Virus record (IMG/VR): IMGVR_UViG_2541047812_000004
Location: 1-37,579 of that record
Strand: one strand, 5' to 3'
Source of the DNA: a virus
Taxonomy: Duplodnaviria > Heunggongvirae > Uroviricota > Caudoviricetes
Length of the DNA stretch: 37,579 bases
Shown: in pieces, positions 1 to 34,959 of the stretch
Position numbering within the stretch: position 1 is the first letter of the stretch
Layout of the letters: each line of letters starts with the position of its first letter
Notes under the pieces: generated by a model
The model's input: the letters and a program-made list of their open reading frames with translations, nothing else
What the model was told of the DNA's origin: nothing
The model's database searches: none
Made by a program: the position numbers and the translations under genes

Positions 1-1053
1 TTACGGGGTAATGCCAACCGCTGCCGCCACTTTGTCGCCACTTGGCAGCGTTGCCAGAGGATTGAAACGGAGCGCCGTTTCCAGATGATCCGGTGCCAGA
101 TGTGCGTAACGCATAGTCATTTTTATATCGTGGTGTCCGAGAATTTTTTGTAAGGCCAGAATGTTTCCACCCGACATCATGAAGTGCGCCGCAAACGTAT
201 GGCGCAGAACGTGTGTGAGTTGACCGCGAGGGAGCACGATAGACGTTTTTTCCATCACGGATAAAAATTGAAAATAGCAGTCTGTGAAGAAATTGAACCC
301 ATCAAGCGCCATGATCTCTTCGTAAAGCTCTTTACTGATAGGGATGCTTCTGTTTTTCTTCCCCTTCGTTCTCACAAAGGTGATTCGGTACTTGGTGACC
401 TGTGAGCGGGTAAGATTGATTGCTTCTCGCCAACGTGCGCCTGTACTTAGACATATTTTTACCACCAGTGCCAGAATTGGGTTCTGACGTTTGCAGTCAG
501 ACAGTAATTCGATGATCTGCTCATGTGTAAGCCATGCCATTTCCTTTTCTGCGATAGTGAATTTGCGCATCTTCTCTAATGGGTTTGGAAGTGTCCATTC
601 ACCCAGGCGGGAAAGTTCTCTGAAAACGCTGCTTAGATGGCTTTGCTCCAGGTTAACAGTAACTGGGCTTGCTCCTTTCTTCCATTTTTCACTGAAGTAG
701 ATTTCACCAGTAAGGCGTTTATCTCGATAGTGGGCAAACATTTTAGAGGTGAGATCGGTTGCAAGAGGATTGCCTAGAGCGTCAACCATCAGCAGCAATT
801 TGTCATAGACATGCTGTCCAGCAGTCAGAGATTTACCATGTAGTTTGAACCATAGCTCAACCACGTCTTTCAGGGTTCGACGATCCACTGATTCGCCCAG
901 CCAGGGCTTTGATTCGGTTTCTTCCATCGTGTGACGCTCAAAAGCCAGAGCTTCGCCTTTGGTGGCGAATTGTTTACGCACACGACGCCCACTTCGTCCG
1001 GCGGGGTAACATTCGCAAAGCCATTTCCCTGTGGTGAGTTTTCGTACTGCCAT
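1..1053 (-). CDS. int: Tyrosine integrase (P2 Int-like)
   Basis: Translation carries tyrosine-recombinase catalytic region (LSTGARWREA, HVLRHTFAAH, MTMRYAHL). Start placed at internal ATG 1053-1051 (MAVRKLTTGKW) rather than ORF-track start at 1209; stop at 1-3. Confidence 0.9.
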   Translation of the reverse strand: MAVRKLTTGKWLCECYPAGRSGRRVRKQFATKGEALAFERHTMEETESKPWLGESVDRRTLKDVVELWFKLHGKSLTAGQHVYDKLLLMVDALGNPLATDLTSKMFAHYRDKRLTGEIYFSEKWKKGASPVTVNLEQSHLSSVFRELSRLGEWTLPNPLEKMRKFTIAEKEMAWLTHEQIIELLSDCKRQNPILALVVKICLSTGARWREAINLTRSQVTKYRITFVRTKGKKNRSIPISKELYEEIMALDGFNFFTDCYFQFLSVMEKTSIVLPRGQLTHVLRHTFAAHFMMSGGNILALQKILGHHDIKMTMRYAHLAPDHLETALRFNPLATLPSGDKVAAAVGITP

Positions 1054-1241
1054 AAAAAATGCCCTCCAGTAGAGAGCATTTTTACTGTATATATAACCAG
1101 TGTCAATGTATGAAATCCTACGACCATACATCTCACTGAAGCCATAATGAAGTTGGCTATTCTTTTTGCTATGTGAGCATGTAACTTTTGCGGTTAACCT
1201 GCGGCTCATTTTTATTTTAGACGCAGATATAAAAACAAAAA

Positions 1242-1433
1242 TTATCGTGAGTTTTTAGTACAGATTTTTTTGGATTTACTAATAGTTCCATCATTGCAAA
1301 CGAATTTGCCATCTGAGGTACAGTGAGAAACACCTCCCTTTTTCCCTGAGCAGGGATAATTTCTAGCATAGGTAGTTAGTGGGTTTAATAACAAAGAACA
1401 TGACAAAACCACAAAAAATACCTTACCAAGCAT
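1242..1433 (-). CDS. Small secreted cysteine-rich peptide (63 aa), putative moron/lysogenic-conversion gene
   Basis: ATG at 1433 preceded by strong RBS GGGAGGA (complement of 1438-1444). N-terminal hydrophobic signal-like segment ([23 protein letters not shown]), then Lys-rich region with 4 Cys. AT-rich, 15 bp downstream of the repressor gene on the same strand. Confidence 0.55.
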
Positions 1434-1448
1434 AGTTTCCTCCCGGTA

Positions 1449-2105
1449 CTATTTAACATACTTGACTGTTAAACTTATAATTTTACCAATTATTTCAATG
1501 TCTTCTATCTTGCATTCGAAGACTCTGTTTCCACCCTCGACGAAGATTCTTCCACCGGGTAAACGAGTAATGTCACGGATCGTTATTTCGCCATCAATAC
1601 TTATTACCCATTTACCATCACGTATATCATCAAATTCTTTATCACAAATAAATTCAGAATTGTTATCTGTGATGACAAAAGGTTTTTTAAACGTAGAGGG
1701 TAGAAATCCCTTATCAAAAATATAAAAACCGTCTTTCTGCAATGCTCCATCAGACAATAAATATTTTTCTACTTCTATAGTATTTGTATTTGCTGATGCT
1801 TGCTTTGAACCATGCCCTGTTGTTAGCCAATTAAGCGAGGTGCCCGTTTCAAGGGCGCACTGGATTACCCAATCTGCTGGAAAAATATCACGCATATAGC
1901 GCGTTGCCATGGTGCTCTTAGAAACACCTAAATGATCACAGAGAGCCTGACGAGTACCGAACCCATATGCTTCAACTAAACGTTCTATGGCTTTCTTACC
2001 GCCGCTATTGAAATCCACAAGTCCTCCAAAGAAATCCAAAATTCGTTGACAGATTCCAAAAGCGATCTTAAAGTTGAACCAGAAGTGTTCTTTTGGAGCC
2101 TTCAC
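1449..2105 (-). CDS. CI-like immunity repressor (186 CI type, HTH N-terminal domain)
   Basis: HTH-like segment (QALCDHLGVSKSTMATRYMRD); divergent from cox/apl-cII operon. Start is GTG at 2105 (ORF track shows M); no alternative in-frame ATG upstream of the HTH. No Gly-Ser-Met S24 autocleavage motif seen. Confidence 0.7.
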   Translation of the reverse strand: MKAPKEHFWFNFKIAFGICQRILDFFGGLVDFNSGGKKAIERLVEAYGFGTRQALCDHLGVSKSTMATRYMRDIFPADWVIQCALETGTSLNWLTTGHGSKQASANTNTIEVEKYLLSDGALQKDGFYIFDKGFLPSTFKKPFVITDNNSEFICDKEFDDIRDGKWVISIDGEITIRDITRLPGGRIFVEGGNRVFECKIEDIEIIGKIISLTVKYVK

Positions 2106-8684: not shown

Positions 8685-10763
8685 ATGCTAATTTTAGAAA
8701 CAACATATAAGTTTTTATCCACCTCGTTAAGGCTTTCTATGAGCAGTTTCTTTTATATCCAGCCTGATTTAAAAAATGATACAAATGCTGATTTTTTGAA
8801 CTCTGTTGAAGAGTATGCAAATACTCATCAAATGCAGATTTATGCAATAATGAATCCCTTAGGGGAAAATAAATATAAATATAATAGAGACGATGTTCTT
8901 ATTATATTAAGCCCAGGATACCAATTAGCGTTCGTTGCTTTTAGTGATGATGTTGATGGTATACAAAATTTTATAGAGGATTTTATAGAGGATTTAGGTT
9001 CCTTATCAGATAAATACAATTATAAAGATACAATTGGTAGGCCTCGAGCGTGGAAAGATAAACTTGTTACTGAGTGCTCATACGCTGATTTTAGTTTCGG
9101 TAATCTTGATAAGTTTTTTGATGAAATTAAAATTATTGATGGTGTTCTGGCTAAAAAGAGTGAGTTAATTATCTCTCTCTTAACAGGAAGTATCAATAAT
9201 ATTGATAAAGTTAAAGGCAATGTGCCAGATAATATACTTGACAAGGTTAAGCAAAAGATAATTTTGTTTGACGGAGATCAGACAAGGTTTGTATACCAAA
9301 AATTTGATAAGAAAAAAGTTGTTATTCAAGGATTATCAGGTACTGGTAAGACTGAACTATTGCTTCATAAGTTAAAGGAAATATATTTGGATAAGGAGAA
9401 TTTAAATAGTAAAATAATGTTTACGTGCCATAATAAAATATTGGCAGACAATATGAGAAAGAGAATTCCAGAGTTTTTCAACTTTATGAAGGTCGAGCAG
9501 CAGATTAGCTGGAATGAAAGACTTTGGTGTGTTAATGCATGGGGTTCTCAATATGACGGTAACTCTGGCGCATATAGATATATATGTGAATATTATGGAT
9601 TAAGTTTCTATCGTTTTAGCTATGTGATGACTTTCGATAAAGTATGTAGAATTGCGTTGGATGAACTAAAAAAGTTGCCAAGCAATGAATTTAAGCATTG
9701 CTTTGACTTTATGTTAATAGATGAAAGTCAGGATTTCCCATCAAGCTTCATTGAGCTTTGCGAGCTGGTAACTCGTGATACTATTTATGTTGCTGGTGAT
9801 ATATTTCAAAGTATATTTGATACTAATATCTCTAATGAGATACAGCCAGACTTTCTTCTAAGTAAATGCTACCGAACAGATCCAAGGACATTGATGTTTG
9901 CTCATGGTTTAGGTATGGGGCTATTTGAAGAAGAACCATTAACTTGGTTAATGAATAATGAATGGGAAGCCTGCGGTTATATAGTTGATGAATCGGTAAA
10001 AGGTAAGTTAAGATTAAAGAGAGAGCCACTAAGAAGATTTGAAGATGTAACGGATGCAAAAATACATAGTGTGGAATTAATTAATTCCACATATGAAACT
10101 GAAGAAGAGAATATTTTGGGTATACTCCGTAAAATTAAGGAGGAGAATCCTACTGTTTTGGCTGATGATATTGGTATCATCTTTATTGATCAGGCTAAGA
10201 CTATATTTAAAATCGCAGACAGACTTGAATTGAGCGTGCCTAGATTATTAGGATGGAAGGTTAATAAGGCATATGAAACAAAAGAAAAAATTAAAGACAC
10301 GTTATTCATAAGTAATAAAAACCATGTAAAAGGGTTGGAGTTTCCTTTTGTTATCTGTGTTACTCGTGATATTATCAAGAGCCATTCTTATCGAAATTCA
10401 CTATATATGATGTTAACTCGTTCCTTTATTAAGTCATATTTGCTTCTGGGAGATGGGAATAAAGACTTACAGAATGAGATAGAAAAGGGGTTAGATGCTA
10501 TTAATGAGCATGGTTATATGGATATTAACGTTCCACCGAGAGAAGTCATTTCAAAAATAAGAACAACAATCAAATATGATGAGAAAAATATATCTCATTA
10601 TGATTTGGTTACAAAGGTCTTCGATGACTTACAGATTGAGCCGATATTTCGTACATCCCTGTATAATACAGTAAAAACAATCATGCCTGATTCTTTTGAT
10701 GTCGATAAAATTACTACTCTTGTTCGGTTCAACTATGAAATAATGCTTCAGGAGTCGAAGTGA
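8685..10763 (+). CDS. SF1 (UvrD/Rep-like) helicase-family P-loop NTPase with unknown ~200-aa N-terminal domain; candidate defence protein
   Basis: Helicase motifs read from translation: I GLSGTGKT, II FMLIDESQDF, III VAGDIFQSIF, IV CYRTDPRTL, VI VKGLEFPFVIC. AT-rich. Alternative start ATG 8739 (MSSFFY..., RBS TAAGG) may be the true start. Confidence 0.75.
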   Translation: MLILETTYKFLSTSLRLSMSSFFYIQPDLKNDTNADFLNSVEEYANTHQMQIYAIMNPLGENKYKYNRDDVLIILSPGYQLAFVAFSDDVDGIQNFIEDFIEDLGSLSDKYNYKDTIGRPRAWKDKLVTECSYADFSFGNLDKFFDEIKIIDGVLAKKSELIISLLTGSINNIDKVKGNVPDNILDKVKQKIILFDGDQTRFVYQKFDKKKVVIQGLSGTGKTELLLHKLKEIYLDKENLNSKIMFTCHNKILADNMRKRIPEFFNFMKVEQQISWNERLWCVNAWGSQYDGNSGAYRYICEYYGLSFYRFSYVMTFDKVCRIALDELKKLPSNEFKHCFDFMLIDESQDFPSSFIELCELVTRDTIYVAGDIFQSIFDTNISNEIQPDFLLSKCYRTDPRTLMFAHGLGMGLFEEEPLTWLMNNEWEACGYIVDESVKGKLRLKREPLRRFEDVTDAKIHSVELINSTYETEEENILGILRKIKEENPTVLADDIGIIFIDQAKTIFKIADRLELSVPRLLGWKVNKAYETKEKIKDTLFISNKNHVKGLEFPFVICVTRDIIKSHSYRNSLYMMLTRSFIKSYLLLGDGNKDLQNEIEKGLDAINEHGYMDINVPPREVISKIRTTIKYDEKNISHYDLVTKVFDDLQIEPIFRTSLYNTVKTIMPDSFDVDKITTLVRFNYEIMLQESK

Positions 10764-11389
10764 ATAAAGAGTATTATTTTAGTCTGGAGCAGGCTCAGTG
10801 TGACTGGGCCTTTAAGCCAATACGAACAAAGAAAGATGTTATTGAAATATTGATGAGATTAATCAAACTAATTTCTGTTTATACAGAACCATGCGAACAG
10901 AATGTGGTTGGGAGAGTGAAACTTCATATATCAAAGATGAGTCGAGTTTTCTTCTTTAGTGAAAATAAATATTATTCTCTTGCATTTCCTTTTTTTCTTG
11001 ATGAAATTAATGGTCAGATTTTATTTAGTAGTCCAGAAATGGAGTGTATAGATAGTTTTGTAACATCAAAAGTCATTTCTTTTATTAATGACTCCTCTTA
11101 TTTGAATAGTTCTTCTTGGGCCTTTTTTGAACCATTGTTAAATATTGAAGAACATCAAGGTATTCCCGGGTTTTGGCCTTTTCTTAGAATGTTGTTAACT
11201 TATGAGGATGGTTATATTAGATATGATGTCGATGAAGAAAGGGCTAATGGAAATCGTCATCCATTATATCATTTCGACGTCTTTTATTCTAATCCGCCAA
11301 CGTTTAAAATTGGTTTGAATGCACATTATACAAATGATGAAATGATTGATTTTCTTGATAGGGAAACTGATTGTCGTTATTTGAAATGA
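10760..11389 (+). CDS. Hypothetical protein (209 aa), partner of the helicase-like gene
   Basis: GTG start at 10760 overlaps upstream stop (GTGA) with AGGAG 5 nt upstream; translational coupling. AT-rich; no recognisable motif. Confidence 0.6.
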   Translation: MNKEYYFSLEQAQCDWAFKPIRTKKDVIEILMRLIKLISVYTEPCEQNVVGRVKLHISKMSRVFFFSENKYYSLAFPFFLDEINGQILFSSPEMECIDSFVTSKVISFINDSSYLNSSSWAFFEPLLNIEEHQGIPGFWPFLRMLLTYEDGYIRYDVDEERANGNRHPLYHFDVFYSNPPTFKIGLNAHYTNDEMIDFLDRETDCRYLK

Positions 11390-19853: not shown

Positions 19854-21608
19854 TCAATCCCAAAATAAATTATTATTAATATTGCTCATATCGAAAGTGA
19901 AGTTCTTTTCTGTAATAGTTTCGTACCTTTGTTCATAGATTATTTTTACATATCTAAACCCCTGTGTTACAGAGCGAATTTTTCGGGGTTTTGATGCAAG
20001 CATAACAAGTATTTCAAATACTTTATCAAGATAGTTGTGGGTGTGTTCAACTAAAAGGGGGGTAAATTTACCACCTTTTCCAGAATGGACTATGTTATTT
20101 CTTGTTCTATAAATTCTTCTGAGTTGCCATTCTAATCTTAACTTATGGTTATCTAAAGTTGATTTAATTGACTCCGGGGATGAAACTATGTTTTTTATAT
20201 ACTCGAAACGATCTGAAAGCAATGTGTAATCACGAAATTTAGCGGATAAAGATTCCCTTACTGATTCGTATTCAGGAAGAATCATTATATTGGCTAGTTT
20301 GTGTTTCGCTTTTGCTCCAGGTATTCCTTTTAAATGTGAGTTTAGTATGTGTCTATTCCATAACAGCAGGTCTCGGGTAAGGTTGTCAATTAAGGAGTCT
20401 ATATATGTAATATTCAGGAATGGAATTATACTTGCAGTAATATGTTCTATTGTTGCTTGATCCTTGGATTTAGTGTCTGTCGGCACTAATGATTCAAGAG
20501 CTATCCATAGATTTAAAAGCTGATTTTCAACATTTTCACTTTTTAATGCCATTGAATGTAATTGAATACTTCTCAAGAACTTGGCAAATGAACTATTTTC
20601 TAGAGAAAACTCAGACATCAATGATTCAAGACGTTTCTTGGCCTTTTCATGCTTTAAGTCCTTGCATTTTTTCATGGGGTTAAGTCTTTCAGCCACTTTC
20701 AAAGAGTCTGTATCAGTTATAACGAAAGCTTCATTTGACCAAGTAGGTTTATCTTTATGATGATAAATATTTAAAAAGGATGATGCTAATTTAAGTAGGT
20801 TTTCAGCATTCTCTCTTGCTGAATAAGAATCAAAAGCTTCTATATTTGATACGCAAACTATCTTCTTTCGTTGCAGATTTCTAAAAAAAACATGTTGGGA
20901 AAATTCTTCTGGTGGTTCTTTCTCAACAGACAAAGAGAGTCTTTCGAAAGTTGGCTCTGCGCCTAAAAACACTGGTTCAACAATAAAATATATTTTGTAT
21001 TTCTTTTTTTCGAGTTTTATTAAATCAAAAAAAGAAGAGACATCAGTGTTATTTGATATTTTATTATTCCCATAATAAAAAAATTGCTGGGTTAAATTCT
21101 TAAGATTATGTTGGCTAAAGCCAATGTAGAGTAATAAACTGATATAATTTCTTGTTAGCTTGCGTATGATGCTTCTTTCCCAGTTAGGGGATGATAACTC
21201 TTGGGTGATAAGTTCTTCACTTTTTTCTTTATATAATTTGGGTGGTAATTGAATGACCAGCATTTCAATTATTGAGCTTCTCTCTTTAGGGCTTATGTTA
21301 GTATTTTTTAGTTTGTTGAGAAAAGCTTGGTAAGCATCGCCTAATAAATCTTGTGCTACTTTATCACATGACAAGTTATGTATTAATTCTGCGGTTAAAT
21401 GTTCAATATTTTTAGGCTGAATAATACCATCCTCAACATCTTTAATTGTATTTAAAGTTTCTACTCCAATTGTTGGGGTATTCATCACTGAGGGTTTGTA
21501 TGTGTCCAGTGTATAGTCAAATAGCATTTCATCCAGTAATTGCGCAAAATATACTAGTGCTTTACAAGTGTCTGGGCAATCCCATTTATACAAAGAACGA
21601 AATTTCAT
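19854..21608 (-). CDS. Large AT-rich cargo protein (584 aa) with C-terminal HEPN-like Rx4-6H motif; candidate abortive-infection/defence protein
   Basis: Uninterrupted 584-codon ORF, ATG at 21608, opposite strand to flanking S and V, in the P2 orf30 position. C-terminal segment RRIYRTRNNIVHSG fits the HEPN Rx4-6H signature. Confidence 0.7.
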   Translation of the reverse strand: MKFRSLYKWDCPDTCKALVYFAQLLDEMLFDYTLDTYKPSVMNTPTIGVETLNTIKDVEDGIIQPKNIEHLTAELIHNLSCDKVAQDLLGDAYQAFLNKLKNTNISPKERSSIIEMLVIQLPPKLYKEKSEELITQELSSPNWERSIIRKLTRNYISLLLYIGFSQHNLKNLTQQFFYYGNNKISNNTDVSSFFDLIKLEKKKYKIYFIVEPVFLGAEPTFERLSLSVEKEPPEEFSQHVFFRNLQRKKIVCVSNIEAFDSYSARENAENLLKLASSFLNIYHHKDKPTWSNEAFVITDTDSLKVAERLNPMKKCKDLKHEKAKKRLESLMSEFSLENSSFAKFLRSIQLHSMALKSENVENQLLNLWIALESLVPTDTKSKDQATIEHITASIIPFLNITYIDSLIDNLTRDLLLWNRHILNSHLKGIPGAKAKHKLANIMILPEYESVRESLSAKFRDYTLLSDRFEYIKNIVSSPESIKSTLDNHKLRLEWQLRRIYRTRNNIVHSGKGGKFTPLLVEHTHNYLDKVFEILVMLASKPRKIRSVTQGFRYVKIIYEQRYETITEKNFTFDMSNINNNLFWD

Positions 21609-34800: not shown

Positions 34801-34853
34801 AACAAAAAACCCATCAACCTTGAACCGAAATGGCGGGGTTGATGGGCTCCACA
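34801..34853 (-). terminator. Rho-independent terminator on minus strand (probable ybjL terminator, near prophage right junction)
   Basis: 10-bp inverted repeat cccatcaacc / ggttgatggg; on the minus strand the hairpin is followed by TTTTTTG (complement of caaaaaa at 34801-34807). Confidence 0.5.
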
Positions 34854-34959
34854 AAATGGGGACATCAAAGAAAAGCAGTGGCACTAATTAAGACTGATGC
34901 CCTGCGGAAAAGTTCTGCGGTTGTGCAAAAAAAATTTCATTTTCAGGGCAACTTCAGTT

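Follow-up and report, generated by a model that had tools for sequence, protein, structure and literature searches.

A predicted secreted YdcA-family cargo gene in the lysogenic operon of a 186-like prophage and a possible envelope-binding role for its product

A short open reading frame (ORF) lies between the repressor and integrase genes of a prophage in IMG/VR record IMGVR_UViG_2541047812_000004, and its place raises three questions: whether so small an ORF is a real gene, whether it is expressed in the lysogen, and what its product would do there. We analyzed the whole stretch of 37,579 nucleotides (hereafter the window), which consists of a P2/186-like prophage with host flank and opens with the left arm of the prophage. 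A preliminary description made from the sequence had proposed that the ORF encodes a small secreted cysteine-rich peptide and is a lysogenic-conversion moron. The ORF is very probably a real cargo gene for a secreted protein. It is also already known, as a prophage cargo gene of the named YdcA family that is catalogued in NCBIfam, PHROG, Pfam, and RefSeq. The account that we favor on balance, taken as a whole, is that of a secreted YdcA cargo gene, co-expressed with the repressor, whose product would serve as a DNA- or polyanion-binding module in the cell envelope; the inferred mechanism is the weakest step of this account.

Coding status and family assignment

The ORF was assigned to the YdcA family by several curated models and records.

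1242..1433, minus strand: coding sequence of the YdcA-family pre-protein, 63 aa plus stop, ATG start (ORF list, NF007463, phrog_6000, WP_000900883.1, and the diverged allele L166)

The NCBIfam model NF007463 matched residues 5–63 over its entire length (model positions 1–58 of 58) with 115.8 bits against a cutoff of 93 (E 5e-34), and phrog_6000 matched with an E value of 1.9e-34. Pfam family PF27300 was precomputed both on the cluster representative (P0001), which is 98% identical to the window protein, and on all close homologues, and an identical protein is present in RefSeq as WP_000900883.1, named "YdcA family protein." The three features that define the family were all found in the window protein, namely the model score, a predicted signal peptide, and the four-cysteine motifs, here PCSGxKGG and CxDGxxSxS; its 63 aa compare with a family length of about 55–65 aa (alignments A1 and A4). 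A GULLO2-like Pfam match (E 0.075) was rejected as due to chance.

Substitution patterns point to a protein under constraint. Relative to the diverged allele L166, which is 93.8% identical, the ORF showed 11 synonymous changes and 1 non-synonymous change (dS 0.31, dN 0.007, dN/dS about 0.02), and the part encoding the mature peptide carried 8–9 synonymous and no non-synonymous changes. A homology search found the mature domain at 70%–80% identity in phages of Moraxella, Acinetobacter, and Haemophilus. These results bear directly on the possibility that the ORF is non-functional, either an ORF that arose by chance or what is left of a decaying gene in the spacer between cI and int. Such a reading draws on the ORF being short, AT-rich, and without known function, and at its composition a run of 63 consecutive sense codons has a probability of about 0.0085 per frame. 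However, the family homology and the strong excess of synonymous changes exclude a chance ORF, and the matches to curated models, the conserved domain in phages of other hosts, and the absence of non-synonymous change in the mature domain speak equally against decay. We regard the non-functional reading as refuted and give it almost no weight.

Placement behind the cI repressor gene

We place ydcA, with near certainty, in the lysogenic operon of a 186-like (Peduoviridae) prophage that is integrated between rcdA and rybB. Its immediate neighbors on the minus strand are as follows.

1449..2018, minus strand: 186-type cI repressor gene (PF07022, E 3e-31; PF16452, E 9e-29; RefSeq start 2018)
1434..1448, minus strand: spacer between cI and ydcA, 15 nt, with the Shine-Dalgarno sequence GGGAGG at 1439–1444 (read from the sequence)
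1..1053, minus strand: tyrosine integrase gene int (PF24624, PF00589; RefSeq start 1053)

The initial account of a 63-aa ORF with a strong ribosome-binding site, 15 bp after the repressor gene and on the same strand, proved exact. The cI stop codon TAG at 1449–1451 is followed by 15 nt, TACCGGGAGGAAACT, and then by the ydcA ATG, and by direct reading GGGAGG stands 5 nt from that ATG. The mechanically called cI ORF extends up to a GTG at 2105, with the RefSeq start at 2018. After cI, the plus strand carries a cox/apl-like gene, cII, fil, and the replication genes.

Base composition gave a more qualified result. The ORF is AT-rich relative to int, as had been claimed (GC 0.354 versus 0.481), and it deviates from the prophage as a whole (0.499) in the manner of morons. 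However, the 3' half of cI (GC 0.33) and the spacer (GC 0.351) are equally AT-rich, so the low-GC block corresponds to a module of cI and the ORF, and AT-richness does not single out the ORF on its own.

Predicted expression signals

Sequence features around the operon suggest that ydcA is transcribed together with cI.

2046..2074, plus strand: pR-like lytic promoter, TTGACA-17-TAAAGT (promoter scan; matches the position of phage 186 pR relative to cI and apl)
1055..1083, minus strand: 13-bp hairpin flanked by an A-tract and a U-tract (RNA fold; conservation)

In a promoter and terminator scan, nothing resembling either kind of signal appeared between cI and the ORF, and since no promoter of its own was found, ydcA would ride on the cI transcript. 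The pR-like promoter faces the lysogenic operon. By analogy with phage 186, a pL-type promoter that drives cI and ydcA and is convergent to pR is expected; pL itself was not located by the promoter scan. We consider co-expression of ydcA with cI likely, and its position in the cI operon predicts expression in the lysogen.

The hairpin downstream of the ORF may delimit this unit. A single nucleotide separates its end from the int ATG, and the Shine-Dalgarno sequence of int, GGAGGG, lies buried within it. Its folding energy was -17.5 kcal/mol (z -4.7), with 0 of 200 shuffled sequences as good. The sister prophages L166 and L167 both retain it, with a U.G pair replaced by C-G, and at this position phage vB_EcoM-813R9 carries another hairpin with a T-run. 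It is the first strong hairpin with a U-tract downstream of the ORF and forms part of a conserved int-proximal segment. We interpret it as a probable attenuator or leaky terminator at the end of the cI-ydcA unit, an arrangement that would make cI and ydcA the steady-state lysogenic unit and keep int low. A plus-strand terminator-like site at 1188–1204 was rejected as weak, as it includes three G.U pairs.

A variable cargo slot

Comparison with phage 186 indicates that ydcA occupies an additional segment in the operon. The lysogenic operon of phage 186 consists of pL, cI, int, and orf69, with cI and int overlapping by 1 nt, while in the window 395 bp separate the two genes (1054–1448). Because cI and int abut in phage 186, ydcA is inserted cargo, and its site in the lysogenic operon is a variable one. 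The match to sequenced phages whose cargo differs ends at position 1131, which places the inserted segment at approximately 1132–1448, made up of the gene and an AT-rich tail.

1132..1241, minus strand: 3' untranslated tail of the inserted cargo segment, GC 0.35 (similarity limit at 1131; composition)

The contents of this slot varied among relatives. The sister E. coli prophage L167 carries ydcA together with a KAP-family NTPase gene whose product matches the defence candidate PDC-S20 (E 2e-171). The slot of phage vB_EcoM-813R9 holds the gene for a 558-aa ATPase, and that of Klebsiella phage 4LV2017 encodes a 349-aa hypothetical protein. A recent survey counts the integrase-primase interval of P2-like phages among their minor defence hotspots (PMC13586616). 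The window protein itself matched no PADLOC defence family at E ≤ 0.001.

Placement behind a repressor gene recurred across the family. Among approximately 78 species-level loci, a repressor gene lay upstream of the ydcA homologue in 17 (nine of the 186 CI type and eight HTH_3), and an integrase gene lay just downstream in five. Clustering of all neighbors within 5 kb across these loci gave no conserved partner gene. We interpret the varied positions, the recurrent placement behind repressors, and the lack of a partner as the behavior of a mobile, self-sufficient cargo gene.

A parallel in gene order was found in the Haemophilus phages HP2 and S2, which are distant P2-like phages. They share the order cI-ydcA-int, with a 60-aa homologue (54% identity; L001:2920–3102) that is without annotation in the deposited records and whose ATG overlaps the cI stop codon. 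Unlike the window, they carry a second secreted cargo gene, orf1(S), between the ydcA homologue and int. The repeated placement behind P2-like repressors in distant hosts, including the HP2 copy, argues for selection for expression in lysogens.

Classical lysogen-expressed morons and accessory genes include bor, lom, and rexAB of lambda and old, tin, and fun of P2. Like these, the window gene is lacking in the prototype (186), is AT-rich, sits in a variable slot, and is positioned for expression from the prophage. It differs in having no detected promoter of its own and in being far smaller than the known defence cargo of the P2 group. The proposal that the gene is a moron was supported in that it is extra relative to phage 186, the slot holds other cargo in relatives, and the family occurs elsewhere in unrelated phages and in chromosomes; lysogenic conversion would be a putative effect of it.

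Predicted signal peptide and mature domain

The predicted pre-protein divides into a signal peptide and a conserved cysteine-rich domain.

1365..1433, minus strand: Sec signal peptide, codons 1–23 (MLGK, 12-residue core, NPLTTYA; rule-based, with predicted signal peptidase I cut after Ala23)
1245..1364, minus strand: mature 40-aa peptide, codons 24–63, the conserved YdcA domain with four invariant cysteines (invariant columns, no non-synonymous changes, AF2, and hhalign)

The N-terminus, which had been described as signal-like and hydrophobic, is of the Sec type by rule, with a single Lys (K4), a 12-residue hydrophobic core, and T-Y-A at -3/-1. A compatible -3/-1 site and a hydrophobic core were kept in 180 of 183 distinct family members; we note that these signal peptide calls are heuristic, as they use simple -3/-1 and hydrophobicity rules. 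Across the family, the sequence of the N-terminal 20–25 residues varies freely and stays hydrophobic, with a small residue at -3 and mostly Ala at -1; the latter is invariant in alignment A1 and invariant or nearly so in A2. A free core with a fixed cleavage context is the signature of Sec export with a signal peptidase I cut, and we infer Sec-dependent export of the pre-protein, with cleavage after Ala23. The alternative of a lipoprotein was rejected: the VLSC at residues 9–12 is too near the N-terminus, its Cys is not conserved, and a lipobox context is absent in homologues.

The mature peptide contains 7 Lys, 2 Arg, 2 Asp, and 4 Cys (4293 Da, pI 9.7, charge +7), in agreement with the earlier reading of a Lys-rich mature part with four cysteines, all of which are invariant across the family. 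A fifth Cys sits inside the signal peptide. Behind the variable signal peptide, the conserved four-cysteine domain spans about 34 aa, with the consensus (N/R)xPCSGxKGG(V/I)xxC...(F/Y)xCx(D/N)GxxSxSxxxC after the cleavage site and invariant columns P, C, S, GG, C, C, S, S, and C in the family alignments. The net charge of the family domain had a median of +4 (range -1 to +8), compared with +7 in the window protein. AlphaFold models showed a short turn followed by a beta-hairpin, with pLDDT of 83–90 over the domain when the signal peptide was included, and the AF2 model of the mature peptide alone reached 80.7. A Cys/His metal site was rejected, as the His of the "SHC" motif is kept only in close relatives and is replaced elsewhere by R, S, A, K, Y, G, or D.

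The small size, two predicted disulfides, and +7 charge resemble those of defensin-like peptides and would suit a cationic antimicrobial or bacteriocin-like peptide that is released against competitors. We consider this very unlikely. The peptide has a Sec signal only, without an outer-membrane export system, and no immunity or processing gene adjoins ydcA in any of the approximately 78 loci. In addition, a single-copy homologue belongs to the core genome of E. coli K-12, and the fusions to nucleases described below do not fit a released toxin.

Distribution of the family

The gene is common in E. coli, and the family extends well beyond it. The gene was present in 628–648 of 5426 complete E. 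coli genomes (approximately 12%), and at least 534 IMG/VR contigs carry a relative. A scan of viral contigs recovered only near-identical E. coli prophages (80 loci at 98%–100% identity); family diversity was drawn from the species-level genome scan, not from viral contigs. The family comprises 445 clusters at 50% identity and spans alpha-, beta-, and gamma-proteobacteria. A tblastn search of 50,697 phage records gave matches only in those of Moraxella, Acinetobacter, Haemophilus, and Pseudomonas phages, and in the Moraxella and Acinetobacter phages the ydcA homologue stands among structural genes. Chromosomal homologues are found in many bacteria. The UniRef cluster label "Conjugal transfer protein" is unsupported, with only 58 plasmid records that carry a relative, mostly from Acinetobacter and Rhizobium.

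Relationship to Legionella Dis2

Structure and profile comparisons both pointed to Dis2 of Legionella (Lpg0823). Foldseek searches with two independent models gave the same top PDB match each time, chain AN of 7MUC/7MUD, with 38%–44% identity, a query TM-score of up to 0.62, and E values of 0.1–0.3, which are this weak because the domain is so small. When the family profile was compared with PDB sequences, Dis2 ranked first (E 3.4e-4, or 0.011 with the mature part only). We collected 203 Dis2 homologues and aligned 35 of these for profile comparison; hhalign of the mature-only YdcA profile against lobe 1 of this 35-sequence alignment gave a probability of 93.4% and an E value of 2.6e-7 over 26 columns at 46% identity, a span that covers the first three of the four cysteines. 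Several Dis2 homologues already carried a precomputed PF27300 match. Based on these profile and model comparisons, we conclude that the YdcA domain is homologous to a single Dis2 lobe, and two disulfides formed in the periplasm would give the mature +7 peptide the small knot of one such lobe. Matches to LDL-receptor class A and lysozyme in the PDB profile searches (E 0.05–0.8) were rejected as chance cysteine patterns. The lpg1681 family gave a weak match (E 0.11).

Dis2 and the window protein are alike in being secreted and cysteine-rich, and each Dis2 lobe, with the pattern CC-x-MGG-x-YC...VCN(N/D)G-x-S...C, can be aligned to the YdcA domain. They differ in that Dis2 has two tandem lobes with extra cysteines (CC and YC) and five disulfides, whereas the window protein has one lobe and four mature cysteines. 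Dis2 is also a stoichiometric part of the Dot/Icm outer-membrane cap, whereas the window holds no type IV secretion system (T4SS) genes. With its single lobe and no T4SS association, the window protein does not qualify as a Dis2. Cryo-EM density shows the disulfides of Dis2 (PMC8486379), and Dis2 has been described as Legionella-specific (PMC12716638) and as without structural relatives (PMC8486379). The comparison ties the YdcA family, including K-12 ydcA, to a solved structure, that of the Dis2 lobes.

Nuclease association and proposed function

Longer family members suggest a possible ligand for the domain. The catalytic Pfam domains in those that we examined all belonged to secreted nucleases, of three unrelated folds: SNase (P0106), Endonuclease_NS (P0159, P0183, P0190, and L118), and PLDc_2 (P0181). 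Nuclease fusions made up 5 of 150 listed clusters. For each of the SNase, Endonuclease_NS, and PLD types, the YdcA domain lies between the signal peptide and the catalytic domain. A secreted SNase gene also adjoins ydcA in four alphaproteobacterial species (loci L104, L143, L152, and L153). Other longer members consisted of tandem domain repeats or carried charged tails.

Secreted nucleases may carry accessory DNA-binding domains. The YdcA domain resembles these in its placement within the fusions; unlike them, it stands alone in the window protein. For a small, basic, disulfide-locked module that occurs recurrently on secreted nucleases, the simplest reading is that it binds DNA or another polyanion, or that it is a targeting module. 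This association provides a testable idea for the ligand of YdcA.

The preferred account would run as follows. Synthesis of the pre-protein would accompany that of cI and so take place in the lysogen, with most transcripts stopping at the hairpin before int. Once exported and folded by its disulfides, the 40-aa peptide would form a free-standing binding module of the cell envelope. Since the domain precedes three unrelated secreted nucleases and is found beside SNase genes, its ligand would most likely be a polyanion, above all DNA. In the lysogen, the periplasmic peptide might then target extracellular DNA or DNA on its way in, and the outcome could be an exclusion-like or an envelope-fitness benefit that would also favor the prophage.

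These steps differ in strength. That the YdcA domain is a putative DNA- or polyanion-binding module is a tentative assignment, and a protective role against foreign DNA or phage seems to us unlikely. A broader version, in which the knot shared by YdcA and the Dis2 lobes is a widespread extracytoplasmic DNA-binding mini-domain and the free copy that P2-like prophages, from E. coli to Haemophilus, carry behind the repressor gene is a periplasmic DNA-trapping exclusion peptide of their lysogens, is more speculative still, and we would call it a long shot. If DNA binding were true, a conserved y-gene would gain a function, and a simple mechanism of exclusion at the envelope would be indicated. Similarly, a DNA-trapping peptide would interfere with DNA entering from superinfecting phage, conjugation, or transformation, and this would be exclusion of a new kind, enzyme-free and acting at the level of the envelope.

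Several observations count against the preferred account. The nuclease fusions are a small minority, and a module for anchoring or targeting would explain them just as well. The family is not uniformly strongly basic, as its charge ranges from -1 to +8. The window protein matched no PADLOC model, no conserved partner gene was found, the scan did not locate pL, and the one phenotype reported for E. coli ydcA is sensitivity to 3-hydroxypropionate. Finally, Dis2, the sole homologue with a known cell location, contacts proteins and is not known to touch DNA.

This last point leads to an alternative in which the peptide is an accessory of an envelope machine in the manner of Dis2. The knot would bind outer-membrane lipoproteins or a secretin- or secretion-system-like complex from the periplasmic side, and the prophage would thereby mask or alter a receptor or a DNA-entry route, so that superinfection exclusion would come from protein contact and not from DNA binding. 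Dis2 sits under the outer membrane, where it contacts DotK, DotC, and DotD, and its deletion has little effect (PMC12716638). Homology to the Dis2 lobes is consistent with such a role, as are the fusion of one other family member to the periplasmic VasL domain of type VI secretion systems (T6SS) and the location of the gene in a lysogenic operon, in a slot that elsewhere holds defence candidates. However, neither a T4SS nor a T6SS is encoded in the window, the two lobes and extra inter-lobe cysteines of Dis2 contrast with a single lobe here, no defence model was matched, and the nuclease fusions are left unexplained. We regard this alternative as rather unlikely.

The chromosomal counterpart in E. 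coli K-12

The preferred account must also be weighed against what has been reported for chromosomal ydcA. YdcA of E. coli K-12 (b1419, 57 aa) belongs to the same family as the window protein, with a signal peptide followed by the domain PCSG-KGG-(I/V)SHC...FVCNDG-S-SKK-C, and the two proteins are 51% identical overall and agree at most positions of the conserved domain. They differ in setting, as the K-12 gene is a single-copy chromosomal gene of the core genome, next to rydC and hokB, whereas the window gene lies in a prophage. They are also separated by the family models: against the K-12 sub-model NF007462, the window protein scored only 68.5 bits (cutoff 118) and passed NF007463 instead. 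E. coli YdcA has been described as a small protein of unknown function that is predicted to be periplasmic (bioRxiv 10.1101/2024.02.12.579971). The only phenotype reported for E. coli ydcA is that its deletion renders E. coli W sensitive to 300 mM 3-hydroxypropionate, a sensitivity that is cancelled by deletion of yieP, and the gene is reported to be YdcI-regulated and acid-induced (PMC7642389).

These reports suggest a further alternative, that the prophage copy acts in tolerance of envelope stress such as acid or organic acids, as the chromosomal gene may do, so that an extra copy would raise host fitness with no role against phage or DNA. Both the deletion phenotype and the acid-linked regulation are in keeping with this, and the chromosomal and prophage proteins share the whole domain. 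On the other hand, the phenotype is a single, indirect one, from one study, and was lost in the yieP background, and neither the recurrent placement behind phage repressors nor the nuclease fusions would be explained. We judge a purely stress-related role improbable, slightly more so than the Dis2-like one.

Finally, the name ydcA is also used for non-homologous genes, one in B. subtilis, one in the gonococcal genetic island, and one on plasmid pS88, where it denotes an adenine methylase.

Integration site and control of the lysogenic operon

The RybB sRNA gene is found just past the right end of the prophage, and RefSeq places rcdA on the opposite flank; the insertion point is therefore between rcdA and rybB.

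34801-34879, (-): RybB sRNA gene (Rfam RF00110, 105 bits)
1449-2105, (-): mechanical cI open reading frame, GTG start at 2105
1055-1083, (-): strong hairpin flanked by an A- and a U-tract (fold -17.5 kcal/mol, z -4.7)

With the GTG start, the pR-like promoter at 2046-2074 would fall inside cI. The RefSeq start is an ATG at 2018, giving a gene of 570 nt, and the layout of phage 186 agrees with this start.

The hairpin ends 1 nt upstream of the int ATG and sequesters the int Shine-Dalgarno sequence within it. Phage 186 is arranged differently, with int coupled to cI through an overlap of 1 nt. Sister prophages retain this hairpin, and because the related phage vB_EcoM-813R9 has a different hairpin and T-run at the equivalent position, sequence comparison suggests that attenuation of int is conserved.

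Cargo genes in the cI-int slot and elsewhere

In a sister prophage from E. coli FDAARGOS_1251 (locus L167, NZ_CP069445.1), the ydcA gene is followed by a KAP-family NTPase gene and then int, so the slot can hold two cargo genes. Other candidate defence cargo was found within the window.

L167:142-1473, (-): KAP-family NTPase gene (PADLOC PDC-S20, E 2e-171)
8685-10763, (+): helicase-like protein, 692 aa (PADLOC 'Helicase' PDLC03002, E 2.9e-28)
10760-11389, (+): 209-aa open reading frame overlapping the helicase-like gene
19854-21608, (-): 584-aa gene on the reverse strand (PADLOC ApeA, E 1.4e-13)

The helicase-like protein also had weak GajB/RecD-like matches, and the 209-aa open reading frame had no matches. 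Both genes lie between the replication and portal genes, the interval where P2-like phages have their main defence hotspot. The ApeA-matching gene lies within the tail-gene block and is probably a further defence cargo gene.

Variants of the YdcA family

A Methylococcales metagenome-assembled genome (locus L118) carries two paralogous Endonuclease_NS genes 1.6 kb apart, only one of which has an N-terminal YdcA domain, making them a natural pair for testing the contribution of this domain.

L118:2423-3298, (+): Endonuclease_NS paralogue
L118:4878-5936, (+): Endonuclease_NS paralogue

In betaproteobacterial and Pseudomonas-type members (P0056-P0062; loci L127, L132, L148, L162 and others), the motif occurs a second time in degenerate form, reading C-x-C...C-TGPRGG-x-YC...SG-x-KSY. 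At several of their loci, the YdcA gene is flanked by an HTH_3 repressor-proximal gene and a P2-type gpD gene, once more a position at a prophage end. The 65-aa member P0008, from one genome, is a variant of the prophage YdcA protein that reads KKIILVLGKKGG in the region of the first conserved Cys and differs from it at the C-terminus; this copy has probably undergone a frameshift or is decaying.
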